Of a stretch of DNA of 64,000 nt, positions 16,101 through 63,460 are shown piece after piece. The notes under the pieces were generated by a model. The model was not told the DNA's origin, made no database searches, and was given only the letters and a program-made list of their open reading frames with translations. A program made the position numbers and the translations under genes. How positions within the stretch are numbered: the first letter of the stretch is position 1; every line of letters begins with the position of its first letter. This DNA comes from Amoebophrya sp. A120 (lineage: Eukaryota > Protista > Dinoflagellata): the NCBI GenBank assembly GCA_905178155.1, contig CAJINV010000011.1:2035894-2099893 (forward strand), given 5' to 3'.

Positions 16101-19100
16101 AAGGCGAAAGCGCAAAGGCGAAAGCGCAAAGGCGGAAGCGCAAAGGCGAAAGCGCAAAGGCGGAGGCGCGGACTCCGTTTCCCTTTTTTCGTTTTCTGTT
16201 CTCTGCAAAACCTCACAACTCGCCCCGCTCAATGCTAGGAGCTATATCATCCTGCTACTACTACTAGGCCCGAATTGCCAAAGCCTGCCATTGCGTTGCC
16301 ACACGAGCAGATCTGCATGCTCATCCTAGAGCAATCTTCTTATCACAAATGGAGAAAAAAACAGGAGAGAAAATAAATGTCATTCAACATTTACGTCGAA
16401 CGAACCCTGTGCAAGAAATTAAGCTTACCATGTTCGCGGAAATCTTCAGCCTTGCGCACAAACTCTCGGGTCGTGGTCCCTCGTCCCCCCCGGAAATCCC
16501 CACCAAACTCGATGAAAACAGATCCCGCAACTCCGCTCGGGCTTTTTTCTGCTCTTCCTCGATCACGGCCAGCTCGTTCAAATAGGCGTACAGCGCCAGC
16601 TATGCATTGCAAATATGTCCTCTATGTCTGGAAACTTGTGATGCAAGGAAGGGAATTATAGTGAGCTCACAGTAAAAATGCGCTCCCAAGCACGACAAGT
16701 CTTTTTCATGCTTCTGAGTTGCGTGTTCCGCATCACAAACTGCGTTTTTGCACCATGACAGGGAGGAAGAGCTCTTCGCGGCCACGCAATACAAAGGTCA
16801 GAGAGAGTAATGCCAGACTAGCATGACAAATCTCGCGATCTCCCAGACCCAGACATTTTTGCATTTGATACCAGCTGGATCTCGTGCACCACTTCCAACT
16901 TCTGCACGCACTTGAATTCAAACACGCACTTTACTTATGGAGAGAAAAAAGTTGGTCACAGTCACTAAGTTGCAGGTTTTGCATTACAAATTTTTTGAGC
17001 ATCACAACTTCTCCTTGTATTGCAGAAACACTAAGGAAATCCCTGAAAAAGTGTGGCTGTGATGCATTTTTACGCATGACAGACAATTTTGTATTGCAAA
17101 AATGCCCATGAGTGATCGTGACGAACTTTTTTCTTTTGATATTACTTCTTTCGACTTCACAAACAAGTCCAGATACCCCTCCAGCCGCCGGTCCTTCAGC
17201 TATCAAAATGAAAAATCACCCCTCCCCATATTAAAACGGACATTTGTGTAGCAGGATTTGCGATCACAAGTCAGTTTGTCATGCTAGAAGGCAAATAAAG
17301 ATGCGAACTGTAGAGCTGTCTGGTATGGGAAAGCCTTGCAGCTTCAGCATGACAGAAGGCAACTGAAAGTGGAATACAGCATGACAAATCGCCTGCAATT
17401 GAGTCCGCCACTGCGTCTCTTGGCCTTCTACCAATACAAGTCGATTTGTGTATGCAAATCCAGCATCACAACTGTTCTTTTCTATACGAACAGGGGGAAT
17501 TTTTCTTCACAATATCAGCTCTCTCCTTCCTTCGCGGACCAGCTTTTTCTCAAACACCGCGGAGTGTTTATCATTCATAAAAACGTCCCCATCTTGCAAA
17601 TCTTCATGCATAAATTGTTTCTCATGCGGAGCCCCATGCGAAGAAGTTTCTAGTGGCGTTGTGAGATTTGTCATGCTCAAATCAGCGCGGCATGCTAGGT
17701 CTCTGATGCTGCTGCACTAGCTAAACGCGACTACACTACGAGGCCAAACTTGTCATGCGCAACAGCCTAAGCTGGTCGATTTGTCTAGCAGATTTCCCAA
17801 CTTGATGACTCTGGAGTGGGGAGGTCTTCACGCAAGATAGTGTTCGGTAATGGCGATCTTCGCTGCTCTGTCCTCGTCCCTCTTGCCCTTCTCGTCGTGT
17901 GGTTGGTGGGCCGGCGAGGTACAGGTACCCGCCCCTTCCCGCATGTAATATGACCCGCTCAGGTGTTACAATCTCAAATCGGTTACCATAGAATATAGAA
18001 ATCCACCAAATCTGTGATGCAAGAGCTGCAGTATCTAGCTAACTCTCATGGGATTGCGCATGACACGTTCTGGAGTCCCAAACCGCACTAGAATGATCTG
18101 GCGAAATTTGTATTGCAGAAAGGGGAATGCTGTCCGAGTCTGTCATGCTCATCATGCAACACAAAATCCAGATGCAATTGTAACGTTTTAGATTGTAACG
18201 TTTGAGCAGGTCATATGTAAGCATCGAAGCTTTTGGTTTCCCCGAACACGGCCTGTTCCTCCTTGAAGAATTCTCGATTATGCATTGCAGAAGTATAAAA
18301 AGCATCTAGTATAAACAGCATTACAAAGTTGCTCAGCATTAGAAACATAATTTGTATTGCGCAATTACTTTGAGAAGTAGATTTGTAATGCATGACTGCG
18401 ATGGTTACCACGACCACGAGCACAATACTTTTGCAGTGCATATCGATTCAGGGAAAACAACCGCTCCGAGCACCGCTCCAGCTGCTGCTGCGGCAGCCAG
18501 GAAAAGTCGGTGATTTGGCTCAGCTTGTGCACAAAACCGGAGGTCACGGCCACGTATTTGGTCGCAATCTGCAGCAACTCCTTGGACGCAAGCGTCGCTT
18601 TGACCGGGAGCTCCTGCACGTCGCGCCTCCTTGCACTCGCATTTTCTCCGGTAAGAAGTACGACCGGACTGTCCACGTCGGGGGAGCCCGAGCCGCCGCT
18701 AGTACAGTAACTTCCGTCCCCCGCCTTGTCTTCCCCAACGCTGCCCGCGGACAGGGAGCTGCCCCGAGGCTGGTCGCGGGAGTTGTAATGGTGTTCCTGT
18801 TGTTCCTGCGAAGTTGTAGCAGTGGTTCTTACGTTTTTTCCGCCACCAACGTCCTCTTTCATCTGCTGCTTTCGCAGCAGCAATTCTTTCCCGACGTTCC
18901 CGAGCAGCATTCCCTTGCTTGCCGTCTTCTTGTTGTCCTTTTTCTTTTTCTTCCCGAAACCAGCAGCCTTGTTTACGTTTTCTCTTTCCTCCAGCTTCCG
19001 CCTCCTGGTTTCGGCCCGGTCTTGCTGTATAACCCGCTCAGGTGTTACAATCTCAAACGTTACAATAGAGTCTGGAATGCGCAACATCTGGCCTACTGCC

Positions 19101-22100
19101 ACAGGAGCGCACATGACAAGTTTCGGGGTTCCCAACCCCATGAGAATCTGGCGAAATCTGTAGTATTGCGAAAAGCCCAAGTCTCTGTATGGTACGTCTC
19201 ATACTGTTCATGCAAGACAAATTTCAGCTTCTATTGTAACGCTTGAGATTGTAACATCTGAGCAAGCCATATGCTGCTCCTGCACCTTCTGTGCGATATC
19301 CGCCAGGCAGTAGGAGTCGCGCACGATTTGCACCAGGCTCTGGTCGGGATGCCGAGCCTCCGCGCTGAACAGCGCCCATCCTGTGTAAAAACGCCCCCAC
19401 CCCAGAGCTGTCATGCTAATCTGCATGCTGAGAATGTTTCTCATGCGGAGCCCTATGAGAAGTGTTTTCCAGTCGTGTTTTGGAATTTGTCATGCTCCAA
19501 TCAGCGTGATATACTAGATCTGTGACGCTGCTGAGCTAGCTCGGACAGCACTACAATACGAGTCCAAATTTGTCATGCAAAACAGCCAAAACTTGTGGAT
19601 TTGTCTAGCCGAGTCCTCATCTTGACTATGGGGTGGGAACGTTTTTACATAGGATAGCGCCTGCAGGATCGCCAGACTGCGGCCCTTGGTCAGCTGAAAC
19701 TCGAAGTAGGCGGGAATCGCGGTGCCCGTGATTTCGGACACCGTCTCGTGCGTCTCGTGCTGTTTCGTCTTTCCCGAAATGCTGATCGGCTCCTTCGGCA
19801 GGCGGATCTGCTTCGTTTCGAAGTATTTCTTCGTGCGCTCTAGCACCAGATCCGGCAGGTGCTTGCACAGCACCGTCACCGGCGTCTCGAAGACCTTTTT
19901 CCTGTTCACCCGGCCGGCGGCGATGTCCAGCACGATCTCATCCCAGGGCTTGTCGATGTCGAAATCGTCGTCCGACCCGTCGTCTTTCTCTCTCAATTTG
20001 ATATGAGAGTGCTCAACTCCCCCTCCCCCTGATTTGTCATGCCAGTTACCAAATCCACGCCAAGTCTTCGACCTCTGTTTGCATGACAACTTATTCTGGC
20101 AGATTAAACTAGCACTACATGATGACTACTGTGCAGATTTGTCATGCGAAACCTGCATTTTTGCTGACACTTGTATTGCTGTTCATGCTATACAAAAGAG
20201 GGGAAGCAGGGGGAGTTGTGCACTCTCATATTTGATCTCCGCATCCTTGACGACCATCGCGTGCGCGTCCAGCGCTTCCTTATTCAGGAAGGGCAAGTAG
20301 TCGTTGTTGCAGTGGTGCAAGAACGTGACCCGTTCCAGCGACCGCGTGGCTGCAACATACAGTTCGTTCGGACACAAGTTTGGGTTCTTATCCTTCTTGT
20401 AAAACTCAAAGTAGGAATTGTCAAACCCATACACGATCACCACCTTCCGCTCCAAACCCTTCGCCTGGTGGAAGGTACTGAAGACCAGCTTCTTTTTCAT
20501 CACGTCGCTGTCCAGCTTCTCCTCATCGTGCGACGGTACGAACACGTTCACGCCGCGGGTCTCGGTCCGGCTCTTCAGCATGTTCTCCAGCTTGCGCACG
20601 GGCGTTTTTTCGCTGCGAATGGAGGGCGCGAGAATAAAGATGTCCTCGGGCTGGTAGCGAAACGCGGTCAGATACATTACCACCTCCTCGAAAGCCTTCC
20701 CCGGCCCGCGGCCGTCGTGCGCATAGTCGTTGCCGAAAGATATCCATAGTAAAATCAAAATTCCCGCACACGTACAAATGCCGTTTCTACATAATAAAGC
20801 TTTTTCCCTTCAATCCTATTTAGCATGACAGGTGGTGTCTGCTCATCTCAGTTGGCGAAGTTTGTGATGCTGACTGTACTTACATGTAGGGGAAATTTGT
20901 ATTGCATAAAACAGTTGCAAATCACGTAACGCGGCAGAAAGTTGGACTTCTTCTTCGAGACCAATCGAATGTTCGCATGCAATGCAAATACGTCTGAGTG
21001 TGCTGCAAGCCTGTGATGCAAGTCAGGGAAAATCAATGCGCACACTTTAATGCGCTGTCAAGCATGACAAGTTTTTCCGTGGTTCTGAGTTGCGTGCTTA
21101 TTGTTCCGCATGAGAAACTTCGTTTTTGCATGACAGGCAAGAGGAGCTTTTTACTCTTGCAGCCACGCAATACAAAGCTCAGAGTCATGCCAGAGTACTA
21201 GCATGACAAACCTCGTCGAAATATTCCAGTTGACCCAGACATCATACGTATTTGCATTTGATAGTTCGCTTGGTTGTGCAGCAGCACCTCGTTGACAAAG
21301 TCGGCCACCTCGATCGGACACCGGAAGGTTTCCGAGAGCTGCAACCGGACCCAGTTTTGATGTCGGAACATCAAAGGGTTGTCACGAGTTTGCGGCCCAC
21401 GGCCGTCGTCGCCGACGATCTCGATTTCCTTTCCTTCGCGGGTAAACGTTTTCCGCGGCTTGTTGAACTTGAACAGCTCCGGGGCAAAAACGATGAACCG
21501 CTCATCCGCCAGGTTAAACTGGTAAATGGACTGGTGGCGGTCCCCCATCACGATCAGCTTTGGCATGAAACCAAATTTGTAAATATCCTGAGTAAAAACG
21601 TACCCACACCAGAGTCAGGATGGGGATTTTGCAGCACAAACCTAGGAGTTTTGTGAGTCACGCATGACATAAACAGACTGTGCTACTGCGGGCGAGACAT
21701 TGTGTATCAGGTGAATTGATCAACCCGAAGACGCCGCCTCCCCGGGCCCTACGGACCTGGCACTCCCAACTATACTCCCCACACGAAACGCCACCAATAC
21801 AACTGTAGGACATTGCCAACCACCCCGTGAGTCACGCATGACAGGTTGCACTCTGCAGTGTAGTGCAGGTTAGCAAGTGCAGCCGCATCACAGATTCATC
21901 TGCTCATCCTGTTCACAGCATCACAAATTCCAAAACGCGATTGGAAATGGCTCTCATGGTCATGCAGATGCGCGTTACAAGTCTTTTTGTCTTTGCAAAT
22001 CTGCATTACAACTCTGGCGTGGGTACGTTTTTACTCAGGATAGTAAAAGTGGTCGCGGCGAATTTTGCACACGAGCTCGTAGTACAGTTCCGTCAGATCC

Positions 22101-27428: not shown

Positions 27429-29240
27429 TCAAGAAGAACTCGCTGCTTCACTTGCGGCGTCCTCCTCCCCGGTTTTGTCCGCAGAAGCCGGTGCTGGAGC
27501 AGGGACGAGCGCCGTTTGTTCTTCTTCTTGCAGCGGAGGTTTCTTCATCCATTCGGCAAACCCTTCCTTGTCGTACTCGTAGAAAAGTTTGTGCGGGTCG
27601 TCTCTGAGATTGAGCATGACGGCGCCATTCTCGTACGGCTTCGGAGGACGAGTAGTACTAGCATGATCATGAACATGATCTACTCCAGCAGGACGAATAG
27701 TACTAGCAAATAGCATGTAGCACTCGGCGAGCCAAGCCATGGGCCCCACCGCATCCGCTTGCCGCATCTCCTCGACCCCGGCTCGGGCGTGAAAGTCCTG
27801 GTACGACCACGCGGCAGCAAACCCGTGCAGTTTCAGACTGGCTTCGCCCTTCCCGAACTGGTAATTGATCGCGGCATTCTTATTTCGCGCGATGCCCTTG
27901 TGCTCCGTCTCTTTCTGGGGGCGGATCTGCACAGACATCGAAATCACTATTTTCGCCTGCATCCCCTGCTCCGCCCAGCTCGTCTCCTTGTTGCCCGGGT
28001 GGTAGTAGTACTCAAACACGTTCAACGCACCAGCGAGTGACTTTTGGCCGTGGTTGAAGTACAATCGCGCGACTTCGTGCAGCGTCTGCAATTGAAGGCT
28101 GCGGTTGCGGATGTTGTATGAGACGGAAATCAAATGAATCCCCCCTCCCGTGAGATTTGCATACCGAGTAGAAGAAGAAGTCCCAGGAGGTTCATCGCGT
28201 AGAATACACGACAAAAAATCATTTCTATGCCATTGCATCCAGGCAGCTTGTTGGGCAGATGGTGTATAGTAAGCTTGTGTCGCCATTAGATAGAAGTCTG
28301 CTTACAGCTGTTGGGCAGGGCAGACAAACCCTCCATCGAGTATAGACACATGGCGGGGGATTTTCGCTGTCGATACCTCTTCCCCAAAATCCTCCACGGA
28401 AATAGCGTAGGCGACGTAGTAGGGCCCGGCTTCCACCCCGGACGCCAGCTTCTCGCTTGCCCGCCACCACACCGCCCCCGGGATGCGCAACAGGCGGTGG
28501 CATCCCACCACGTCCTGGAAGGTTCCGTCGGGTCCGCCACAGCCCGGCTGGCCCGCCCAAGCCCCGGTCCGGAATGCCGCGCCCCCGTTGACGTGCACCC
28601 ACAGAAGCTCCGTCACCCAGACCAGGGGTGCGCCCGTCGGGTCGACCGCCAGGCGCCAGATGGGCAGCAGACTTTTGTTCTTGATGTCTCCAGTAGTACT
28701 AGACGCCTCGCTTTGCTGCTGCATCGAGTCCGGACAGGGCGTGCGCGCACTGTAGGCGACAATAGACGGAACCGTCTTCGCAGAGGCCCCGGCTTCCGGG
28801 TGAGGGTCCACCAGGTCGTCTTCTTCGTACCAGTCCCAGGCATGGAACCAGAAACTCTGCCCATCCTATCAAATGCAAATAGCGATCTGGGTCTGCATGA
28901 CTAAAAACCGCGTTTTTATTGCATCTCATGAAAGGGGAGGACCTTGCACTTGCTTTGCGTGGACGAGCATCACAAACCTGTGAAAATCATCATACAAGAC
29001 CCACATCATGACAGATCTTGCACCGGTCCAGTCAGACCCAGCAATTACATTCACAATTCCTAGATCCGTCGCCGTTCCGAAGCGGATGATGTCATTGCCG
29101 TTCTTGTACTTTTTCTTTTCCTCGACCAGCTCGTGGCCCTGCTCCAGGAAGGCAAACTGCTGCAAGGCCCGCGCATGGTCGCAGTGCAGCAAAGAGCTGC
29201 AGCCGGTGGACAGAAGTATTAAAACCGCCTGCTTGTTCAT
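27429..29240 (-). CDS. Hypothetical, probably secreted protein (could be two genes)
   Basis: Signal-like N-terminus MNKQAVLILLSTGCSSLL; removing element 28867-29062 joins it in frame to ORF 28302-28811; link to ORF 27429-28286 inferred. Confidence 0.55.
28867..29062. mobile_element. Introner family A (degenerate)
   Basis: TSD CATCC/GATCC. Confidence 0.78.
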
Positions 29241-44300: not shown

Positions 44301-47300
44301 GCATGACAAACCTAACTTTGCATCCTTCCAGACCCAGACATATTTGCAATGCATAGCTCCTTTGTCTTCGCGATCTTTCCCGTCTCGTTGACCACCTTGG
44401 CTATCCTGAGTAAAAACGTACCCACCCCAGAGTTGTCATGCAGATTTGCCATGACAGGAACATTTGTGATGCGCAACCTCATGACAGGCATTTTCCATCG
44501 TGTTTGGGAACTTGTAATGCTGTAAACAGGATCAGAAGGTCGATTTGTGATGCGGCTTTCCTTGCTAACTTGCACTACCTTACGGACTGAAACTTGTCAT
44601 GCGTGACTCACAAAACTCCTAGGTTGGTGTTGCAAAATCCCCATCCTGACTCTGGTGTGGGTACGTTTTTACTCAGGATATTGGCCACGGTGCTGCTACC
44701 TCCGGTCGCCGTCCCGCTGGTCGGCTCCAGGCTGTGTTCGTCCAGCTGCATGGTGGAATAGGGGAGGCCGACCGACCTCCCGTGCACCAGCAGAATATCG
44801 TCCCACCGCACGTCGCCCTCCTGCAGCTCCGAGGTGGCGGTGCGTTTCCACAACTTGCGCACGGCGAGGAAGTCGCGCCCGTGCTTCTGCAGGTACGCGA
44901 CGGTGGCCAGGCGGATCATCACCAACTCCTGCTCCGTCACCCACAGGTCCTGGAACACGAACGTCATGTGGAGGCGGTCCGCAAGCACGCGGAAGGGTGC
45001 GGTGGCGGTGGTGGCAGCGAAAGAGCTGGTCGTCGCGGGTGGCGGCGGGGGCGCCAGACTTCTACTTGTCGTCGCTGCTCCTGCTCCTGCTCTATGCATT
45101 GCAAATATGTCTGGGTCTGGGAAGTTGTATTGCTGGCCGTGCATTCCTGTGAAATCTGTATTGCATGACCAACAAAAGTGGCAGCCTCTCTTGTCATACA
45201 AGAAGAACGCAGTTTCTCATGCGGAGTTCGTATGAGAAAGCGTTCCGCAAACTTGTCATGCTTTAATGGATAAGAAAACGTTTCCATCATGCTCATTTTA
45301 GCATCACAAATTTCCGGACCCAGACATATTTGCATTTGATATGCTCCTCCTGCTGCGCCGGGCGGGAGTTGTTCCGCGGGGGAAAAGGGCGAGGCGGCGA
45401 ACCCCGCCGGACCGGCGCCCAGTAAGCCGGGCGACGACCGTATCAACTGCAAAAATGTCTGGGTCTGGAAGAGTCATGCTGTTTTTGCATGACACAGAAG
45501 GTCTGCCATGGAAGCTCTAGCGTCACGGGTTTCCAGAAGCTTCCGCAATGCCGAATCCGAATCACAAATCCCCCATTTTGGTGACAGAAAGTAGGCACCT
45601 TTTGCTGCCTATGCATGGGAGATTTTTCTGCGTTCTAAAATGCGCATCACAGGTTTGTATTCTTCCAGACCCAGAAATGTTTGCAATTGATAGACCGCAG
45701 CGTTGTCGCGGACGGCGGGGTGGGCAGCCCCGCGGCGGCCGGAAGATGACTGGGCGGCGGAAACAACGACCCGCCGGGTCGGTCGGTCAGCGGAGGCGGC
45801 CCGAGGGCGGGCGGGAGTGGCGGCGGGAGCGGGGGCGAGGAGGGCGACGTCGAGCTGAAGGCCGGAGACGCGCCGCTCTTCGGCTTCACCGCGGTCCAGG
45901 ACGGCCGGCTCTGCCCGGTCGGGACGGCTGGGGCCATGGCGGGGGGCAGTTGGGGCGGGAGCTGGCTCGGGAGTTGCGGTGGGGGCTTGTGAAGACCGGC
46001 CGTGGTCGTGGTGGAGGGGGCCGCTGATGTAGTACTACAACTTGTTGGCGCGGCAGCAGGAGGGGGAGGACCTACGTGCGACAACACGCCACTCCGGCGG
46101 GCCGGCGGGTCGAATTGACTGACCGAGTTGTTCGACGCAGGAGTATTGGTGCCAACAAGGCCCGAAGAAGAGGATGCTGTAGCGGCTGTGGCCTCGCAAC
46201 GTGACTTCTTTCTCCTGGCTTTCTTGATTTTTCCCCCGTCGGACGTACTTTTCATTCTAGCAGAATCTTTTCCAGTTCTACTTCCGTCTTCCGCTGCAGC
46301 TGCTGCCCCCGCGCGCCGGCTCGACGCGGCTAAAATGCTACGCATCACCTCGCCCCGCAGTCGGACCCCGCGAAAGCGGTGCGCCGCGGGCTCTTCCAAA
46401 CTGGCCGGGACCTCCGCTGCCGCACTCCGCGACGTGGATGAAGAAGAACTGCTGGTGCTTATTGTGAGGAAACACTCCCTGCTCTCCCAATACTCAGAGT
46501 GCGAATCTGTCATGCGGATTTGTGGCCACAAATAATCAGCTTTGTGTTGCAAGACTAGGCACGCGCAGGAGAGGTGTGCGCCGCATAAGTACGCAGTATG
46601 CTGGGACTACAGCGGTGGAGTTCTTTGTCATGCTGAAAAACTAGACCCCGCGAATGGCCTAAACGGGCCGAGGCTCTACTGCCTGCTGTGGTCCCTTACT
46701 GCAACATAGAGCTCAACATTTGTGTACGCAGATCCAGCATCAGATGATTTTTTTTTGAATATGGGGAGGCGGGATCTTTCATTTTGATAGTGCTGGCCTT
46801 CGTACTGCTCTTCGACGCACCTCCACTGGTCGTCCCGCCAGCGGGGGCCGAGGCTGCAACAGATGCCGACGACGTCGACGTCGCTCGGCTACTGCTCGAC
46901 ACCGCAGTCGCCCCTCGACCAGACGCGCTGTTGGACGTCGTCGTCGTGCCTCCACTAGTACTACTACCTCCTCCAAGATGGTCACCAGCAGCACTTCCCG
47001 CCGCGTAGAAGTCCGCCGCGTCCCGCGTGGTTGTGCCCCGCGCCGCGTAGACCGCGACACTGGTGCGCTCCGTGTGCTGCTCCGTGGCCAGCGCGTCCGC
47101 CGGGGACCGCCAGATCACCGCGAGCACGGCGGCCTGCACGCGCAAGTTATAAAAGTGCACATTTCCCCCTGCCCCTCATTTGCATAGCATGAACGGCAAT
47201 AAAAGCATCAGCAAGAATACCGGTTTTGCATGACAAATTTGCACTGGAGCGTAGTGCTGTTTGGGCTTCCAGGATTTGTCATGCAAACAGTGCTACAAAG

Positions 47301-50937: not shown

Positions 50938-52472
50938 TCAGCACGTGCGATCCTTGCTGGCTGCTGCACTGGAAGGTGAGTTCCTGCCGCTTTTGTACTT
51001 CTGGCAATGTCGACAGCTTTCCATCAGCGTCTTCGCCCATTCGATGCCGCTGTTCTCCCCGCCGTCGAGACCGCTTCGCTCCTTTACCTATCCAGATGAA
51101 AATTCTTCCCCCCTCCCAGTATACCTAAACGAAACTCAGAATGGCAGATGCCTAGCCTGTCGGCCGCCCAACAGGATCTCCACAAATCGCCTGCATAGTG
51201 CGGCGGCGGATTTGTGGTGACAAATCATCAGGTTCACAAACATAATCAATCTTTCCGAAACTCATACCTGATTTTGCAACGGGGAGTAGGGGGGATTTAG
51301 ATTTCCCTTTATGATATCGCTTGTCGTGTGTTCAGCACCGTGAGCACGCCGTAAATGACCGGTTTTTGACTGTCCAGGTTGAGCCGCATGACGCCCTGCG
51401 TGGCCGTATCCTAAGCAAAATACGCGTCCCCACGACCCCAGAGTCAAGTTCAGGACCTATAGCAATACAAAGACAAATCCAGCGGCTACTTGAGGAGTCA
51501 GAGTCACGCATAACAAGATCTAAATTGTATAATTGTCGTGCATTTCAGAAAGGACAGCCGTGAATCTTCACAAAGCCATCTCCTCGTCCTGTTTACAGCA
51601 TTACAAATGCCAAAACAGGCTTGGGAATGACTTTCATGGATATCGTGCGCATTTTTACAAGTGTTCCTGTAGATATGCAAATGTGCACGACAGCTCTGGG
51701 GTGGGGACGTTTTTGCTCAGGATAGACCGCCTCCGCGATGTACTCGAAGTGCATCGTTTCGCCCTTGACCAGACACCCGATCACCAGCACGCCGTCAAAC
51801 TATCACAGCAAAAAGTGTTAACGTTAATGGAAAAATTTGTGAAGCAGTAATGCACCACTAAACGCGCCATCAAATTTTGTCATGCATAATAAAGCATGCA
51901 TAATAAGCTCAGTGTCCATTTGTGATGCATGACTGCAATCGGTGAACACCGTTAGCGTTACCACTTTTTCTTGTGATACAAACTGGGGGAGCATCACGCT
52001 CGCGGCCAGTGGCAGCTCGTACGCGCCCGCCACCCGCTCGACCGTGACCTGGGCGCCCGCACTTTGCAGCGTCGTGACCGTATGCATTGCAAATATGTCT
52101 GGGTCTGGAAATTTGTAATGCCGGATTGTAAGTAGTGAATGCTCTGCAATGCACAGCCAAGCACGAGAAATTGTATTTGCGTGGCTTGGTGTTACGCTTT
52201 CCGCATGACGAACTGCGTCTTTGCGTGACAAGCAAAACAAAGGGTCTCTTCTTGGACGCGCATCATCACAAACTCTTTAGTCATGCCAGACAAGCATGAC
52301 AAACCTTGCATCCTTGTTGCAGACCCAGACATATTTGCATTTGATAGACCGCGCCGTCGAGCAACGAACCACAAATTTCCGGATTCCACCGCGCGCAGAC
52401 GATGCCGACCTTGATGCCCGTTCCGTCAAAGTCCTGCTCGGGCAGGCCACGCAGCGGATCCTTCGAGGCCAT
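50938..52472 (-). CDS. ribH: 6,7-dimethyl-8-ribityllumazine synthase (5 exons)
   Basis: KVGIVCARWNPEIC, VAGAYELPLAA, FDGVLVIGCLVKGETMHFEYIAE, PVIYGVLTV, NSGIEWAKT. Confidence 0.93.
51407..51724. mobile_element. Introner family B
   Basis: TSD GGCCG/GACCG. Confidence 0.85.
51801..51978. mobile_element. Introner, singleton TIR TATCACAGCAAAAAGTG
   Basis: TSD CAAAC; removal gives MLPQF|DGVLVIG. Confidence 0.88.
52081..52346. mobile_element. Introner family A
   Basis: TSD GACCG; removal gives DGAV|TTLQ. Confidence 0.9.
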
Positions 52473-53180
52473 TTCGACGCTCCGAAGTACTTAAGTATTC
52501 TACTTCAAATTAGAACTACTCCTTTTGTTCAAAGTCCTTTATGAAAGAAAAAGGAGAGGCTCTTCAAATCAAATTGAAAACAACTGTTCGTGCTGTCGAG
52601 AAAAAAAAGCCACAAACCACGACCACTGTGACCGCCCTTGATGCAGTAAAGATCTATTTATGTAAAGAAAATTATACCATCGGCTCTGACGTAAATCTTC
52701 AATCATTCTTTATTCGAAAAAACTTTGAACCGCGATGAAGATGTCTTTTCCTGTAGCTATCGATCTTCCACCTCTGGCGCTTGTGATGAGCTCTTCTTGA
52801 GACCGAAAGGACACCTGCACGGTGAGGCAGCTAAAACGTCGTCAACAGAACACTTTTGACTTCAATTTTCGTCGAATGATAACAGCAAGAATGCCTGCTA
52901 GTTGTTGTTCGGCATTCTTATTCTTTTCCGTTCCATGACCCCTTCATCTTGGCTCAAGGTCAAGCTTCACTGTATTTTCGTCCAACGTGCGGGAAATTTG
53001 CTTGCCCTGCTTCATCATTGGAGGTCGGATAATAGTACTCATCCTGTAGTTCGTCGACGTGCTGTTCTTGGTCACTATTAATGTAATGAATCACTCACCC
53101 TCGTTCTTTTCTTGTTCTGGCCTTCTAGAAAAAACCGTTTAGCCCTGCATCCTCACTACCACTTTCACACCCGCTACACG

Positions 53181-56100
53181 TCACGTCCCCGACAAGCCGT
53201 AAGCCAGAAGCTCCGCAGCGAGCTGGTCGGCTGCCGTGAAGTCGTATCCCAGAGAAAAAAGCAGGCTGGGCATAAGCATATCTGTGATGCAAAAAGAAAA
53301 TAACATCTGTCATGGGTGGCCCCATATGGCACGCTGCTTAGGACAGGCAACACAGATTTTTTTACCTATTTACCTTTGGTGCATTACAGATATGGCCTGC
53401 CAGTTTTTTTCTGGGAGATAAGTCGCCCGGTTTGCCCAGGAGCTCCACACACCCTATCACCTTCTTGTTCTTTTCCTCCTTACCTTGGTCTTCGTCTTCC
53501 TCAAGAGCAGGTTTGTCTTTGTTCCCGATAAAGAATTCTCCATTAGTCTTCTTTCCGGCAGTAGTTACGGGAGTCGGAGTTGTTGTACTTGATGAAAATA
53601 AATTCTCACTCGTCGAAGTGCCATCTTCCCCCTCGTGTACCATCGTGCCCCCATTCTCGAAAACCGGCACCGCCAGGACGCTCTCGCCCGGAGCCCAGAT
53701 TTTGTCCACGGAGCCGGACAGCCGTACTGTCGTCCCGCTATGCATTGCAAATATGTGGTCTGGGAGATCTGGAAGAGTCTGAGTTTATATATCATGCTAG
53801 TCTGGCATGACTCTGAGGTCTGTATCTCTCTCGTCTGCCATTCATTTCATTTCACTGAGACGGGCCCCCTGTGGTCGTCCTCGCGGTGTCATCCTGGCCC
53901 TCGGCTATTTTGCACAAATGTTGGCTGTGCCCAGCAAGATGACGGCTCTGCATAGGCAAATCTTGGCAATGTCCAGCAAGAACGGAGTTTCTCAAGCGGA
54001 ATACGCAAGACAGAACCACAAAAAAACTTGTCATGCTTGGCGGCGCATTACGGTAGTTGTGATGTGCAGTATTTGTATTACTCATTAACTTGCATCACAA
54101 CTTTATTCCAGACCTAGATCGATATTTGCAGTTTATACCCGCCCGTGCGAAACACTTCTTCCGCCGCCGAGGCCTTGGCGGAAAACCGCGCGTCCCAGTT
54201 GCCCGTATTAGTTGCAAATATGTCTGGGTCTGGAAGGATGCGAACTTGTCATGCTGGGCTCGCAGTTTTCCTGTGAAATCTGTACTTTTGCATGACCAAC
54301 AAAAGTCCTCGCAGCGTCTTTTGTCATACCAAAATGGAGCTCTTTCTCATGCAGACTGCGTATGAAAGTAAAGCGTTCTGCAAAATTGTCATGCGTGGCT
54401 GCATTTAGAAGTGTTTCCATCATCATCCATAGTTTATGTATAGCATCACAAGTTTCCCTTTCCAGACGTCCCGGGATATTTGCATTTGATAGCCGGTGGC
54501 AGCCCTCGCTACCAGCTCGCCCTCCGCCACTACCGCGAGGAAAAATCCCCCCTCCCCATATTGAAACGGCACGCACCTGAAAACTTTCGATACTGATTTG
54601 TTGTGGGCGCAAGTCGTGTCTTTCTTGCAAGAGGGCAAATAAAGAAAGTCCGCCAAATTACGCGAAAGGTTTGTGATGCTGTTAGACTTACCGAGAGGAC
54701 GTCTGTAATGCTGAGCGCCTACCCCAGAACACCCCTGCCCAGGGTCCGCATCTGTCCGCAGTCCTGTACTGCAGGACAAAGCTGATTTGTGTACTCAAAT
54801 CCCGCATCGAAGATATGGGGAGGGGGGATTTTTAATTTTGATAGCCGCGTCGTAGATGTACAGGATCGCCTGGAAAGTCAGCGTGGGTCGGTTGTAAACA
54901 TTTTCCAATCATTTTTATCTTTTGTAGTGATCGAACAATTTCATCCTCAGGCGCGAATCAATTTTTATCGCCAAGCAGTGTTTCTTTTCACACGTGTGCA
55001 CGAGAGCAAAAAAAATCTGGAACGACAAAGCGAAAGCACACCAATAAAACTGCCCGGCATATGAAATAATGTAGAAGACGCGTCAAACATTGTCGATTTT
55101 CAACAATCTGAATCAACTTCCTTAATACCCGCTTCGCGCCGAGCACGGTTGCGAGCATGCGGAGCCACTGGGCCACGAAGATGCAATCAGTACTGTCGGC
55201 ACGATTGCTGCGGCCCTGCTCCACCACGTTCTGCGTAACGAAGAACAAAGCGATTGCCTCGAGCATGATCTTCCCGCAGCGCTGCGCGAACCGCAGCGCC
55301 AGGGGCTCGCCCAACAAGCACTCCAGCACATCGGTGTGCTCCGCCCGCTGCAGCTGCACCGCCACCTATCGCACGAAAAACAAACTGTTTCACTGTAACA
55401 AAGAACTTGTGATGTTGCATAGAGATAGAATGGAACACAGAAGCTGCGTTTGTCTTACTTACTTACACATGCAAGAGCAAGACGATAAATTTCTAGGCGT
55501 GCTGTCTATTCCCCCTAGGAGTAGGAACAATATCCTCGCATGGAAAAACACTATAAAGTTTTCTTTCTCATTTGTAGCGACCTTGTGATGCAGAACTCGC
55601 AAAATCTTTACAGTGAAACACTTATCAAATGTAAAAATGTCTGGGTCTGGAAGAACGCAACTGGTGATGCTGCATTTGGATTCCAGAAGAATCTGTATTG
55701 CATGAGTACCAAGAGGAATGCAATTTTTGCTATGCGGAGAGGGCATTTGTCATGCGGAATAGGCATCAAGAAGCTCTCAAAAAATCTGTGATGCTAGGGC
55801 ATGCATCACAGACATCAGGGCTCATGCAAAACGTGCATGACAAGTGTCAGAATCTTCCAGACCCAGACATATTTGCATTTGATAACACTTTTTTCGCAGG
55901 ATACCACCAGTGCGGTAAACAGCGGCCCGTACTCGAACACGAACGGCGCGTGGAGTAGCGACGAGTATGGAAGCGTCAGGTTTGAAATCGACAAAGTTGA
56001 AATGATTTGCCATGCATAAAATGCAAGGCATGAAGTGCCTGTCTTGCCGGGATGACAAGTGAGGCCGACTGTCAGCCTGTTTAGGGTTTGCAGTAGAGCT

Positions 56101-58543
56101 GTTAAAGTAGCAAGACAAAAGCAATCTTCTGTGCCCAAACAGCGTGACAAATTGGATTCCGGTGCTCGGAAGATTTGCCATGCACTGCTTGGAAATTGGG
56201 CTTCCAACTGGTATCAATTTTAAGCATTACAAGTTATTTCAACTTTGTCGATTTCAATCCTGACACATCCATAACGAGGGTCGTTCTCGTTGTAGTACCG
56301 AGGTGAAACATTACAATTGAGTAACTTACAACCACAGCATGCGCAAAAGATCACGACCTGGAGGGAGTTTCATACATCCGGGGGGAGGTTTATTAATATA
56401 GCCTTCTCCCCGCACAGAACTGCCGCATCTCCCCGCGCGATGCTCCGACGGGATAACGAGATTTACTCCCTCAAGCTGGCGGTGTGCAGCAGTTCTGAGT
56501 ACAATAAAAGTACTATTTTCACATGACAGAGCGAATCGCGCACGCATCACATCTCCCAGGTAGTTCACAGTGTATTTTCCCTGCTGTAAGCAGCACATTT
56601 CATTTCGAGTTTGAGGAAGTAACAGTCAGTACTGCAATCATTCTTGTTCACTTCGATAGCAGAGGAAGAAATTGAATCTGACCCGTCCTGCAAAGATCCC
56701 CGAAAGATGTTCTTCCCCTGCGGATCCTCATTTGCTGCTGCCAAGCCACCGCTCCGCCTTTCCTCTCCGTCGCTGGACTCCAGTAAAGTTTTCATCTTCG
56801 CGCGCGAAGATCGCGCAGATGTTGATGACGCAGACTGATTTACGTCGCTGTTGCTGCCTCTTTGATGTTCTTCGGCGGAGAATATCAACTGCAAAAATGT
56901 CTGGGTCTGGAAGATTGCAACTTGTCATACTGTTTTTGGATTCCAAAAAAATTTGTATTGCATGACCAGCCCGAGGAATACATTTTGTGCTACACGACCA
57001 GGCCACTTCTCATGCGGAAGGTGCATCAGGAAGCCCTCTAAAAGTCTGCGATGCTAGGTCATGCATTACAGGCATCATGGGTCATGAGAAATATGCATGA
57101 CAAGTCTTGCATTCTTCCAGACCCAGACATTTTTGCATTTGATAGAGAACACGGGCGTGCGCGTTTTGCGCACGAACCTGCCGTATCAAATGTAAAAAGG
57201 TCTGGGTCTGGAAGAATGCAACTTGTCATGCTGTTTTTGGACTTTAAAGAAATTTGTATTGCATGACCAGCAAGAGGGGTGTAGTTTGTGGCACACGGAC
57301 AGGGCATTTCTCATGCGGAGAGTGCATCCGGAAGGGTTCTAAAAATCTGTAATGCTAGGGCATACATCACAGACTATCATGGGTCATGAGAAGTATGCAT
57401 GACAAATCTCGCATTCTTCCAGACCCAGACAGATTTGCATTCCATATCCCGCTCCGCCGTCCCGAGCGCGACTCCTGTTGTACTTCTTCCTCCGTCCTCC
57501 CGTCGCTGGACGCGGGACGCGCTCGTCCTGGCGGAGCAAGTAGAAATGGGTGTGCACTCTCTTTTCGGTCTACCGGCGAAGAAGCTCCCACGCGCCCGTC
57601 ATTTTTACCACCGGAGGACTGGTTGTGGTACAGCGGCTTTGAAGATGTTGTTGACCGCGGGGGTGAAGTAGGCGAGCAAGTTTTTGCAACTTTATGATCT
57701 CTGCTGCTGTCCAGCGGCGCGGTGTTTTTAGAGCCGGAGGAAGTAGTCGCGCCTTTGATATTTCTACCACAGTAAGAACCCGGCCGGGTGGTAGAAGAAG
57801 TCGAACTTGAACTGGTAGACGGCAGCAAACGCCAAGCAGGCGGCAGCTCCCCCTGCGGTCCCGGACGCGTGCCCCGCTTGTTGCTGGCGACGAAAGAGGG
57901 CAATAAATGATCGCCAGCGGCGGGGTTCGCAGCCTTCGTCCGGAAAAAACTTCTGCAGGGCCGTGGGAAGATTCCTTCATGTTTTTGCTGAATCGGAGAA
58001 GTTGAACCCATGCAACGACCCTGAAGAAGCCGCGCCCGCGGACATCACAACCTACTACAGCGATCTTCATATCTCGTCGTCACAACTTGAACCTATGCGA
58101 GCAAAAGAGGTACTCAAATATCAAACTCTACCTTCCTCGTCTCTCCCCTCCGCCACTTCACGATGAAGGTAGCCGTCCCGCTCCGGTGAAGCCATACTCT
58201 GCTCGCTTGGGGGATCGAATGCAGTCCGCTCATCCTCCTGTAGTTCCTGCCCACTGCACTCCGAGTTGTGTCCCTCCTCGCGCACGCGGTGCCGCAAGGC
58301 GTGGGTCAGTTCCTTCAGCTTTCCCACCTGCAGCTCCAAGCACTGGATGGTGCGAACGTGCGCGTTAATGGTGTCGTCCTTCTGGCGCAACCGCTTCTCC
58401 CAATGGGAGGGGGAGTAGACAGGCGCAACGCCTGGGACGAGCGGGAGGTCGTCTTTCCACGGGAAGGCATGACCGTCGCCGGGACTGGCCGTGCGGCCTC
58501 TGCTGGTGCCGGCGGCGTCAGACGGGTCGGTGGCGCTTTCCAT
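53181..58543 (-). CDS. Coiled-coil and GAF-domain-like protein, multi-exon
   Basis: N-terminal heptad-like WEKRLRQKDDTINAHVRTIQCLELQVGKLKE; C-terminal GAF signature SVLAVPVF...VIGCVELLGKPGDFTAADQLAAELLA. Confidence 0.6.
53245..53420. mobile_element. Introner family G
   Basis: TSD AGTCG. Confidence 0.9.
53739..54137. mobile_element. Introner family A, enlarged and degenerate
   Basis: TSD CCCGC. Confidence 0.82.
54206..54491. mobile_element. Introner family A
   Basis: TSD GCCCG/GCCGG. Confidence 0.85.
54531..54843. mobile_element. Introner family F
   Basis: TSD GCCAC/GCCGC. Confidence 0.85.
55367..55903. mobile_element. Outer introner (TIR TATCSYRCGAAAAA..TGTTTCACTGTAA) containing a nested element
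   Basis: TSD CCACC. Confidence 0.85.
55623..55884. mobile_element. Introner family A nested within the outer element's TIR
   Basis: TSD ACACT. Confidence 0.9.
55966..56273. mobile_element. Introner family D
   Basis: TSD ACGAG. Confidence 0.9.
56883..57144. mobile_element. Introner family A
   Basis: TSD GAGAA. Confidence 0.9.
57184..57446. mobile_element. Introner family A
   Basis: TSD TGCCG/TCCCG. Confidence 0.88.
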
Positions 58544-59449: not shown

Positions 59450-62400
59450 TCACAAGTGTTCCTTCATGGTCTGAAGGTACCCGTAGGCCAGCTTCAGCGC
59501 GCCCTGGCTGGTGGGGTGAATGTGCGTGACGTCCGGGGCGGAACCCACCAGGCCGAACAGCTCGTGCACCGCAATGGGCACCACCTTCGTTTCCGGCCAC
59601 TCTTTCTGCAAGCTATTACAGTGAAAAGTGCCCCCCATCCCTGAAATTGCAAAAATTTATGATGCGAAGTTTCCAAATGAAAACTTTTTGTCATGCATGA
59701 AAGGAGTATGAATCTTTCTGATGCAGAGTATAGGCGTGTATCGCATCGCTTGCATGACAAGCGCCGCACTTGCTGGGGTCTTTTGCAATACAAATTTTTG
59801 CTATTCACGATCGGAAACCTGTGATGCTGATTGATGCAAGAGGGTGAATGTTTCATTTGGAAAGGTTTGCAATACAAATGCTCGCAAGTTCGGGTGTGGG
59901 GGCATTTTTCATTGTAATACAAGCGTGCGGCGAGCCGCTGGTGCGCCAGGTGGATGCGGCTCAATGTCGTTTCTATTGAGAGGAAAAATTCCCCCTCCCC
60001 AGATTGAAAACGCATTCGTCCGAAAATTTGCGATGCAGATTTGAGGTCACAAATCCTGTCTGTCTTGCAAGAAGGCAAAGCCTGAGAGTCCGCCGCATTA
60101 TGCCGGCGGTTTGTGATGCTGTTGGGCTTACAGAGCCGACATCTGTCATGCTGGTCCCCTACGTCAAAACCTCTCGACCCAGGCTGGACATATGCCTGCA
60201 GTCCTCTCCAGCAAGACAGGCCTGACTTGTGTACGCAAATCCAGCATCAGAAACTTCGTTTCGATATGGGGAGGGGGGATTTTTCATTTTGATAGTTTCC
60301 AGAAACGCGTTCCCGCTCCCCATACCCAACTTCTGCGAGAGCCCGAACAGAAACCTGGTTTGTTGGAAGTGGAAGAAAATACAGATTCACTTTGCGGCAA
60401 GACTAAGATCATAAACAGCAGCACACTTTCAATATACTGGTTCTTTAATTTGAATACGATAAAAGACAAAACGATACGCAGAAAGCTTGAGGCTGGACTC
60501 CGGGTGGAAGTAGCTGGGCAGCAGGATGAGGCGGGGCGCGTTCTGCTTGTCGGGGCATAGCAGGTGGAGGTACTCCCACTTTTCCTGCTCGAACAATCGG
60601 TCGATCAGCTCCAGGTACAGCTCCTCGGAGGATTTCTTTGCCTCCGCGCCCTCGGCATTAAAGACCTCCGCGAACAGGCGTCGCCCCTGCAGCAGGTCGT
60701 TGCCGCCGAGCGACACGACCAGCACGTCGTTCTTCCGGATGTTGTATGACATGCAATTATGTCTGGGTCTGGAAGAACGAAAACTTGTCATGCAAAATTT
60801 CCGTGCCCAATGAGGTCTGGAATGCAGGGCCTAGCATGACAGAATTTGTGAGGTCTCTATGATGCCTATCCTGCATGAGAAACTCCCTCTCATGTTGGTG
60901 AAAAAAGTGCAACTTTTGGTGATCACGCAAGACAAATTTTTGCATGCTCCAAACTTAGGCATGACAAGTTGGAACTTTTCCAGACCCAGACATATTTGCG
61001 ATGCATATGTTGCTGCGAAGAAACTCGTCGTGGGACTTCAGCCGCTCCTGCACGTAATCCGTGGCGAAACCCTGCTTCTGCACCAGAAGTCGCTCCTATG
61101 AGAGTAAACAACTCACCCTAGTCCCGCTTATTTGTATCATGGCATGAACAGCAACACAACCACCAGCACACGTCGTGGAGCCTGTACATGACAAATTTTT
61201 GATGCGCCGAGCTCTGTTGTACTGTTTAGCAGGCTCCCGGAATCATTTCTCATGCAAACATTGCCACAGAGAAGCAACTGGAGTTGTAATTTTCCATGAG
61301 AACAAATGAGGGGGAGAAAGGGTTGCGCACTCTCATAGCTCCCCCAGCTCGCTGCCCGCGATCGCGCCGTTGACAATATGAAAGCCTCAGGTTGGAAATT
61401 CTCAAAGTGAAAATAATTTGTAATGCAAAAAAACGACTCCAGTTGAAGCACCATTCCTAGTCGGCGCATGACAAATCTCCCGGGCACTCAAAACGTGTCT
61501 GTCATGCTAGTTAGGCAATGGGGTGCCCTTGTGTCGTGCTAATCAGCAGCCCAATTCTGAACCCGTAGAAGCACAATGGTCGGCCTCCATTGCGAGCTCA
61601 GCAATACAGGGCTTTTTGCGTCGCATTTCATGCATCACATCGGAGGTCTACGGGCAGTTCGTCCCTTGTGGCATCAGGCTCTACTAAAACCAATAAATTT
61701 ATTCATTCACTCATTCACTCACTACCCTCGTGATTCGATGCACTTCTGATGGCACATGTGGAAACACGATTGGCACCAACGCACTTCTGGTGGTGCGTGC
61801 ATTTACTTAGTCATAAAGTAGAAAGTATAACACGATGAGCATAGACAAACTTAAGCGCGAACTTTACGAAGTGCAACGTACGAGATGTGACGAGAGACGT
61901 CCTAGGACAGTGAAGCAAGGACGGCTACTGCCACACGGGGTCCCGCAGAGACCGAGCACAGGGCACCTGACCGTGGTACATCAAAGGCCTGGAGGTCTAA
62001 GCGGGTGCTCGCACAGATCGAGTCCAGGTCAACGAGTAGTACACCGTGGGTGCATGCTCACTACTACTCGAGGCCTCGATCTGTCGACAGCCCAAGCAAC
62101 ACAGGGGCGCGGCAAAAAGCGCACGACTGTCTACATACCGTGATGGTATGTACACTGTCGTCGCCAGCAACTGGCGATAAAAAAGCCTACAGACGATGGT
62201 ACGAAACTACGAGCACGAGCACAGACGTACGAACCGATTTTTGTTTTTCGTTTACGAAGTCATACCGATTTTTTACATGACGATGCAATACCGAAAAGGA
62301 TTTTGCACGAAGTGCCGTCGTGTAGCGATAAGAAACATTTTAGCAGCTGTTGCTTGGACGTATGAATCATCAAATGCTGCTTGTGGACGAACGAGCTACA

Positions 62401-63460
62401 AAACAACTACATGCATCACAAATTAATTCCACTTTGAGGATTTCCATTCTGAGGCTTTCATAGACCACCGCGAATCCGGAGTACCGGTGGCACCTGTCCG
62501 GGAAAATAATCCCCCCACCCCATACTGAAAGCGGAAACTTGTGATGCTGATCTGCGCCCACAAATCAGCTTTGTCTTGCAACATATGGGGCAAGAACAGG
62601 GAGCCGTTTCAAAACGCATTCCACGGCGCTAATCTGTGCAGCTGAGCTCTTGCCTACTGCAAAGCTGTCTGCCACGCCGAGCTGCTAGCCTTTTGCACAA
62701 CTAGTAATCTTCAGGCTTTGATGAATATATATGCCTTCCAAGCGCTTGCTGCAATACAGCGCAAATTTGTGTACAGAAATCCAGCAACAGAAATCTCCTT
62801 TGTTGCATCTATAGGGTGGGGGCTTTTTTCAACACTTTTATAACTTTCATCCGCGGGGGAAGTTTTTGACGCCACCGCCGTGCTGCTCTTCTCCCCCGGT
62901 CCCATCACACGGAAGTCTTTCACATCGTACAGCAGCTGCATCATCCAGTAGGTGACGTCCCTTATGCATTGCAAATATGTCTGGGTCTGAAAAAGTTCAA
63001 AATTTGCGATGCTACCTCTCGAGCGGACAAAAATTTCTCTTGCATGAGTGCCAACGGTAGTTGCTAGCTCTTCTTGCGCGTGGCACGCAAAAAGCGAGCT
63101 TCTTATGTGGGAAAGCGCATGACCAAGCCTACTTCGCCAAACCTGTAATGCTTCGCAGACCATGTGTCCGCCCCAGAAGATGCATGGCAAACATTAACAC
63201 TTGCACTCTTTCACACCCAAAAAACATTTGCGATTGATATCGCGCAGCACCTTTTGAATCTGCAGCGAGGGCAGAGCCTGCTCGTAGCCGTTCACCGGTT
63301 CAGCCCACGGCGACAGCGGGTAGTCGGGACCCATCATCACAAAGGCCTTGTTGTCCAGCGCCGAGTCGCCGCTGAGAAAGACAATGTCCCGCCCGTCCGC
63401 GCGAAAGGAGTCCGTCAGTGCCTGCAGATGCGGCACGTGCTGCCCCAGCTCGCTGAAGTG
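59450..63460 (-). CDS. SGNH/GDSL hydrolase; start not resolved
   Basis: Blocks VFLSGDSALDN (I), VNGAIAGS (II), VVSLGGNDL (III), DVTHIHPTSQG (V) after element removal. Confidence 0.8.
59614..59919. mobile_element. Introner, TIR TATTACARTGAAAARTGCCCCC (F-related)
   Basis: TSD CAAGC. Confidence 0.88.
59974..60294. mobile_element. Introner family F
   Basis: TSD GTTTC. Confidence 0.9.
60745..61007. mobile_element. Introner family A
   Basis: TSD TGTTG. Confidence 0.9.
61097..61337. mobile_element. Introner family E
   Basis: TSD GCTCC. Confidence 0.88.
61377..62462. mobile_element. Introner (D-related TIR TATGAAAGCCTCAG..TGGAAAT.CTCAAAGTG) with a 770-bp secondary insertion
   Basis: TSD GACAA/GACCA; 11-bp internal direct repeat. 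Confidence 0.88.
62495..62842. mobile_element. Degenerate family F-like introner; ends uncertain
   Basis: CCCCCCACCCCATA / TATAGGGTGGGG subterminal inverted repeat; no clean TSD. Confidence 0.6.
62963..63239. mobile_element. Introner family A (degenerate)
   Basis: TSD TCCCT/TCGCG. Confidence 0.8.

Follow-up and report, generated by a model that had tools for sequence, protein, structure and literature searches.

In a 64,000-nt stretch of the Amoebophrya sp. A120 genome (the window), a family A element lies nested inside the inverted repeat of another introner, and RNA-like contigs support the absence of the whole 542-nt unit from the mature mRNA. The locus is a real, well-spliced nested introner of known kinds. 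The simplest reading, which we consider likely and to which we assign a probability of about 0.68, is that a single excision at the outer ends removes the 542 nt, the inner element travelling as a passenger.

Both elements are bounded by exact 5-bp direct repeats (TSDs), CCACC for the outer and ACACT for the inner one, and in both of them each end shows a terminal inverted repeat (TIR) opening with TAT, 7 nt and AAA (Table 1). The inner element, whose 33-nt inverted arms are 94% complementary, interrupts the right inverted repeat of the outer element 14 nt from the end of the latter. Eleven of these 14 outermost positions match the left end, for which the rough chance is 9e-5, to be multiplied by 1e-3 for the exact outer TSD; beyond the insert the deeper arm resumes over 16 nt (55383-55398 with 55608-55623, 94%). 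The left TIR exceeds the restored right arm by 3 nt, near the point where the right arm was hit. The inner element bears MITE-like hallmarks, being short, with TIRs, a TSD of fixed length and many copies (the window has 25 further family A copies, the best 81% identical), and no second copy of the outer element was found within the 64-kb window (best global identity 0.59). We infer that the inner element came later and inserted, as DNA and with duplication of 5 bp, into an older element already serving as an intron.

Table 1. Features of the nested locus and of its host gene, in window positions
Feature	Position	Strand	Remarks
Outer element, TAT...ATA	55367..55903	.	270 nt without the inner element and one inner TSD
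Outer TSD, left copy	55362..55366	.	
Outer TSD, right copy	55904..55908	.	Source of the GT donor on the minus strand
Outer left TIR, intact	55367..55398	.	
Outer right TIR, deep part	55608..55622	.	Ends in the inner left TSD, 55618-55622
Inner family A element	55623..55884	.	262 nt, own TIRs of ~33 nt
Outer right arm, terminal 19 nt	55885..55903	.	Inner TSD copy 55885-55889 plus outermost 14 nt
542-nt intron, GT...AG register	55366..55907	-	Phase 0, between Leu and Val codons
Host gene	53181..58543	-	664 aa (P0001), Amoebophrya sp. A120
Upstream exon	55908..55965	-	X1 joint; match to P0001
Downstream exon	55129..55365	-	X1, X2 and X3 pieces

Family A being highly repeated, the nesting might reflect an assembly in which such repeats were collapsed and unrelated flanks joined, or the gene might be dead, and among the DNA pieces listed the right border between inner and outer element is absent. 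We nevertheless hold this to be very improbable, since the two pairs of TSDs match exactly and the TIR resumes beyond the insert, since a single contig of the DNA-like run X5 (possibly the assembly's own source) covers 54812-55647 with zero differences and crosses the left outer/inner border, and since RNA-like contigs link both flanking exons in a frame that, once spliced, equals the annotated 664-aa protein.

The removal was read from three runs (X1 to X3), whose RNA nature is a guess, although plain GT-AG introns are skipped in them; all three come under a single sample label and a single study and, with an annotation that perhaps stems from related data, amount to one line of evidence. In X1, a 1841-nt contig joins 55361 to 55904 and skips 542 nt with the ends CT..AC (GT..AG on the minus strand), the same contig omitting also the plain intron 54870-55128, and depth in this run is 0 in four bins over 55371-55614. 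A single X2 contig carries the exon pieces 58131-58468, 57447-57973, 56660-56877 and 55128-55361, the last of which is present in all three runs; in this contig 75 nt separate the pieces at 56660 and 55361, the distance demanded by the exon model. Mean depth in bin 55110-55520 is 3.93 in X2 and 10.8 in X3, values that the exon piece alone accounts for (234/411 of 6.9 and 19), and the outer interior is therefore uncovered in these two runs. Both are able to reveal retention, as they carry the neighbouring element 54531-54843 unspliced. The raw-read runs X8, X9 and X10 gave 94, 9 and 1 matching reads, all partial fits to repeats with zero exon cover. It is the whole unit that is seen to be removed: the joint expected from inner-only excision (55622 to 55890) is absent from the complete three-row joint table of X1, with the qualification that contigs lose rare forms and a short-lived inner-first intermediate would not show. 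For X2 and X3, compared over 12 kb, the piece and depth tables were used, the joints there being dominated by repeats and leaving room for an inner-only joint.

The host gene model comprises 11 introns, 9 of the element type and 2 plain GT-AG. A search of 81 candidates with a 77-aa exon gave one protein, P0001 of Amoebophrya sp. A120 (664 aa, 99% identical), and the full exon model agrees with it at 663 of 664 residues, the mismatch falling at the 54531-54843 junction, where the two repeats differ; it follows that the deposited annotation already handles the nested unit as one intron. The joined exons have a stop-free frame on the minus strand only. Taking out the 542 nt restores the open minus-strand frame that the first-pass annotation of this DNA had quoted, with the residues of P0001. 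That annotation had also given the coordinates and TSDs of both elements exactly as they stand in the sequence, and the placement of a family A element inside the TIR of another introner was recovered by an automatic remove-and-rescan scan; the partial retention, silence or pseudogene status that it had listed as contrary outcomes did not occur, in view of the RNA-like contigs and the annotated protein. At its C terminus P0001 shows a weak GAF match, under the Pfam cut-off (E about 0.01), while a Pfam search with four single exons gave 0 families and a PDB sequence search nothing meaningful (E 0.88).

Owing to its 5-bp repeat, the outer element has six equivalent splice registers, and one of them, 55907-55366 on the minus strand, reads GT...AG, the mRNA sequence being the same whichever of the six is cut. 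This register, which the first-pass annotation had overlooked, takes its GT from the repeat and its AG from the element's last base plus the repeat's first base, and it has the same G/GT and AG/G context as the two plain introns of the gene. The donor is intact, the insert starting at intron nt 24, that is 23 nt from the GT, and the acceptor is uninterrupted, the insert ending 257 nt before it. The inner element has no GT-AG in any of its 6 registers, and no clear branch motif shared by three 3' ends was found by eye. Under a strict definition of non-canonical splice sites the outer unit, given its GT-AG register, falls outside the class, and the inner element alone would be non-canonical. Because of this register, the outer unit groups with the canonical introns bearing inverted and direct repeats described by Farhat et al. 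(2021, PMC7789003), excerpts of which attribute such an organisation to 15% of A120 canonical introns and list U1 snRNA as undetected in the genus Amoebophrya, a point that counts against the one-step reading. Among the 63 elements of the window with usable ends (66 minus 3 with uncertain borders), a minus-strand GT-AG register occurs in one only, namely the nested outer element, the random-site expectation being 3.7%; on the plus strand it occurs only in 56296-56658, antisense to the gene. That the sole TIR-split element is also the sole canonical one has a chance of about 1 in 27 to 1 in 63, a suggestive coincidence for a single case spotted after the fact.

The predicted folding of the nested intron bears directly on how it may be removed. 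On the minus strand the intron folds to -182.5 kcal/mol (z -6.2, 0/100 shuffles as low), in a predicted three-way junction made of the outer terminal helix, the inner hairpin and the deep outer helix. With the inner element present, terminal pairs have probabilities of 0.61-0.98, with one C-C mismatch, and 12 of the 13 deep pairs reach 0.74-1.0; the probabilities of the 14 terminal and 13 deep pairs are nearly unchanged without the inner element, both at 37 and at 20 C. At -11.1 kcal/mol, the terminal duplex is within the range of five non-GT-AG neighbours in the gene (-9.2 to -13.7). When other real elements of at most 330 nt from the automatic scan catalogue were swapped in as the inner one, at least 8 end pairs were kept in 49/49 cases (10.0-11.8), while dinucleotide shuffles of the inner element kept the outer stem in only 5/30 trials and plain shuffles in 3/20. 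These are equilibrium predictions, sensitive to the flanks: the spliced neighbour 56296-56658 gives 0.6 end pairs with 40-nt flanks, yet its stem appears with short ones. The folds thus predict that the inner element closes its own hairpin, so that the outer stem remains paired in both its halves, and that prior excision of the inner element would not be needed for this stem; they also predict that, with an unstructured insert of 262 nt between them, the ends would not be kept joined by the last 19 nt alone. As the nested outer element pairs at 13 of 14 positions on the minus strand and 11 on the plus strand, a bias of G-U wobble pairs towards the transcribed strand was considered, and was rejected on the 63 elements (33 vs 42, p=0.36).

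The first-pass annotation had proposed that either the inner element is removed first in an ordered two-step excision, or the last ~19 bp of the TIR are sufficient. This choice proves too narrow, because a canonical GT-AG intron may need no stem and because both halves of the outer stem are predicted to pair with the inner element in place; for the second branch, the 5/30 shuffled-insert folds that keep the stem argue against sufficiency, at least in the model. Nor does the locus offer the natural test of mechanism that had been suggested, being confounded in that all routes give an identical mRNA.

An obligate twintron, in which the inner element is excised first and non-canonically to rebuild the outer stem or clear the donor region, would be in keeping with an insert as close as 14 nt to the element's end and 23 nt to the GT donor, with an inner hairpin that is transcribed first, and with the exonic family A copies 56883-57144 and 57184-57446, which by the accounting of the record are removed without GT-AG. 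A shift-tolerant count of end pairs, 16.7 for the restored and 11.8 for the nested form, points the same way and counts against one-step removal. We consider this route unlikely, however, as X1 has no inner-only joint and the outer interior is uncovered in X1 to X3, as the donor and acceptor dinucleotides are uninterrupted, and as the predicted folds contain the outer stem even while the inner element is present. Similarly unlikely is a hybrid nuclear twintron, in which non-canonical machinery would remove the inner element first and the spliceosome then the outer one at GT-AG; if true, two splicing routes would act in order on one intron.

Alternatively, the outermost ~10-19 nt (TAT-N7-AAA with short pairing) may be what is recognised, probably with the aid of a protein and irrespective of the deeper TIR and of how the insert folds. 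The excerpts of PMC7789003 describe A120 inverted repeats of 8-20 nt with TAT, 7 nt and AAA, a core that is intact here; in Euglena, synthetic introns with the motif and 12 paired bases are spliced (PMC12501133, in excerpt); and element 18279-18442, with an 18-nt TIR, lies inside a long restored frame, as far as the DNA goes. The neighbour 54531-54843, which combines a perfect 20-bp deep stem with 8/14 terminal matches and is retained in X2 and X3, fits as well, although its retained form is not seen in X1. We find this explanation doubtful here, in that thermodynamics alone lends it no support (a shuffled, non-hairpin insert leaves a terminal stem in only 5/30 and 3/20 predicted folds) and that the locus is uninformative on sufficiency, since GT-AG and a deep stem are also available.

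The neighbour just cited deserves description in its own right, as at least one element, among those listed, is retained. Element 54531-54843 starts with TAC, has mismatched TSDs and carries its 20-bp stem in the deeper part of the TIR; it is retained without differences in X2 (54499-54870, depth 8.37) and X3 (54537-54870, depth 12.8), is uncovered at 54700-54760 in X1, and is absent from P0001, its retention introducing stop codons. The element hints at a greater importance of the outermost ~10 nt relative to the deep TIR. With its outermost pairs damaged and its retention in two of three RNA-like runs, this element, ~500 nt away, offers a cleaner single-locus test than the nested unit.

For the preferred one-step removal, the course of events would be as follows. 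After a family A element had inserted into the older intron-element 14 nt from its end, duplicating 5 bp, its hairpin would branch off the outer stem in the pre-mRNA, and the outermost 14 bp and deeper 13 bp would still form. The outer ends would thereby keep two usable signals, a GT-AG pair that the spliceosome could read and a terminal stem open to a non-canonical route, the latter presumably being the one that handles the other 62 elements; between the two we see about even odds, leaning to GT-AG. Inner-first removal would be a possible but unrequired side route, given that the inner hairpin is finished by intron nt 285 of 542 and that exonic family A copies are removed in the absence of GT-AG, and it could be the common one if the non-canonical machinery accepts any family A hairpin. 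A milder corollary of the hybrid twintron reading is that TIR insertions may survive mainly where the outer element has GT-AG ends; if TIR-splitting insertions proved enriched for such ends genome-wide, this would be indirect proof that non-canonical splicing needs the stem where they are missing. The nesting of one TIR element within another is predicted to be structurally neutral, so that introns could accumulate while genes stay intact.

Across the window, short elements with a TAT start, an ATA end, ~30-nt imperfect inverted ends and 5-bp direct repeats are abundant. An unsupervised remove-and-rescan scan found 44 + 1 + 8 = 53 of them, with only one nested case, and 13 others, picked out manually after a BLAST of the catalogue, bring the total to ~66, which occupy ~18.4 kb (29%) of the window; a handful of incomplete elements or elements at an edge, near 28867, 51100-51300 and 62500-63240 and at the end of the window, were excluded, and all element counts refer to the 64-kb window only. 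The sequence of their TSDs varies. Within the TIR, pairing occurs in 58-63 of 63 elements at positions 1-3 and 11-13, and in only 23-37 at positions 4, 5 and 7. Minus-strand coding-like frames (GC 0.57) hold 62 of 65 elements, by a coding proxy that is partly circular, and at 57 of 65 sites it is the minus frame that comes out longer once the element is removed, while ~11.9 kb of AT-richer non-coding DNA has almost no elements. Under uniform insertion about 10.5 nested cases would be expected among 66 elements, against the one TIR-in-TIR case seen (P 0.0002). We discarded this rarity as proof of selection, for target preference explains it equally well: 62/65 elements lie in coding frames, and the GC of the elements (0.445) is close to that of the avoided non-coding DNA (0.447). 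A GC-rich bias is reported in excerpts of PMC9860276.

The elements belong with the A120 introner elements of Farhat et al. (2021, PMC7789003), which the excerpts describe as short, repeated introns bounded by inverted repeats of 8-20 nt, flanked by direct repeats of 3-5 nt, opening with TAT, 7 nt and AAA and without transposase, putative transposases being given there for A25 only. The same excerpts state that >60% of Amoebophrya introns are without GT-AG ends. In the present case, by contrast, one element splits the extended TIR of another, and TIR pairing in the window reaches about 30 nt against the 8-20 nt quoted. In term searches, "nested" had 0 occurrences in the main and supplement text of PMC7789003 and 0 in PMC12130899, PMC9860276 and PMC11282704; our literature search, made on text passages, found no description of nested introners in Amoebophrya and, in the literature searched, no functional test of end pairing in this genus.

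Nesting as such is known elsewhere. In Micromonas CCMP1545, introners lie inside other introners and older introns (Verhelst et al. 2013, PMC3879977, in excerpt), an arrangement for which those authors invoke reverse splicing, whereas TIRs and 5-bp TSDs mark both elements here, of which the inner lacks canonical ends. With fungal stwintrons (Fekete et al. 2021, PMC8469720, in excerpt) and, from partial sources, organellar twintrons, the locus shares an intron-like unit within an intron, near the outer donor. In stwintrons, according to the same excerpt, an internal U2 intron interrupts the donor, branch point or acceptor, and the intermediate is seen, 31/36 cases being confirmed; here, in contrast, both ends are uninterrupted, the inner element is not GT-AG and no intermediate is seen in contigs, which drop rare forms. 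The locus had been called twintron-like, a term that holds for its geometry and not for an interrupted splicing signal, as donor and acceptor are intact and the stem is predicted to survive; the features that define stwintrons are absent or unsupported at the locus. Closer in build are the nonconventional and "intermediate" introns of euglenids (PMC3935182, PMC4770533, PMC12501133, all in excerpt), with which the locus shares paired ends and borders made slidable by direct repeats, for which a MITE origin has been proposed, and which include rare hybrids with canonical borders and a stem, like the outer unit. Short terminal pairing is necessary for splicing in Euglena (PMC12501133, in excerpt). 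The euglenid introns differ in lineage and in motif (CAG/CTG vs TAT/ATA here).

Two further elements of the window are interrupted by another kind of insert, with direct repeats longer than at the nested locus, and neither has a GT-AG register. At 61377-62462, a non-TIR insert of ~780 nt breaks a 305-nt element, up to 69% like the 31656/55966-type copies, about 50 nt before the right end of the latter; this insert is flanked by 11-nt direct repeats, carries a short repetitive tail and appears retroelement-like; a loose end of X3 at 62410 fits the insert-free form, probably from another copy. At 21584-22042, 17-nt direct repeats (about 21654-21670 and 21827-21843) enclose a ~157-nt insert inside an element of the 44402-44680 family.

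Within the host gene, a 13-nt micro-exon (56279-56291) separates elements 55966-56273 and 56296-56658. The latter has degenerate TSDs, and only the skip 56292-56659, which has CT...AC on the transcribed strand and reads GT...AG on the antisense strand, yields P0001. A short minus-strand gene at 51300-52480 contains three elements, and its N-terminus resembles a lumazine synthase by motif.
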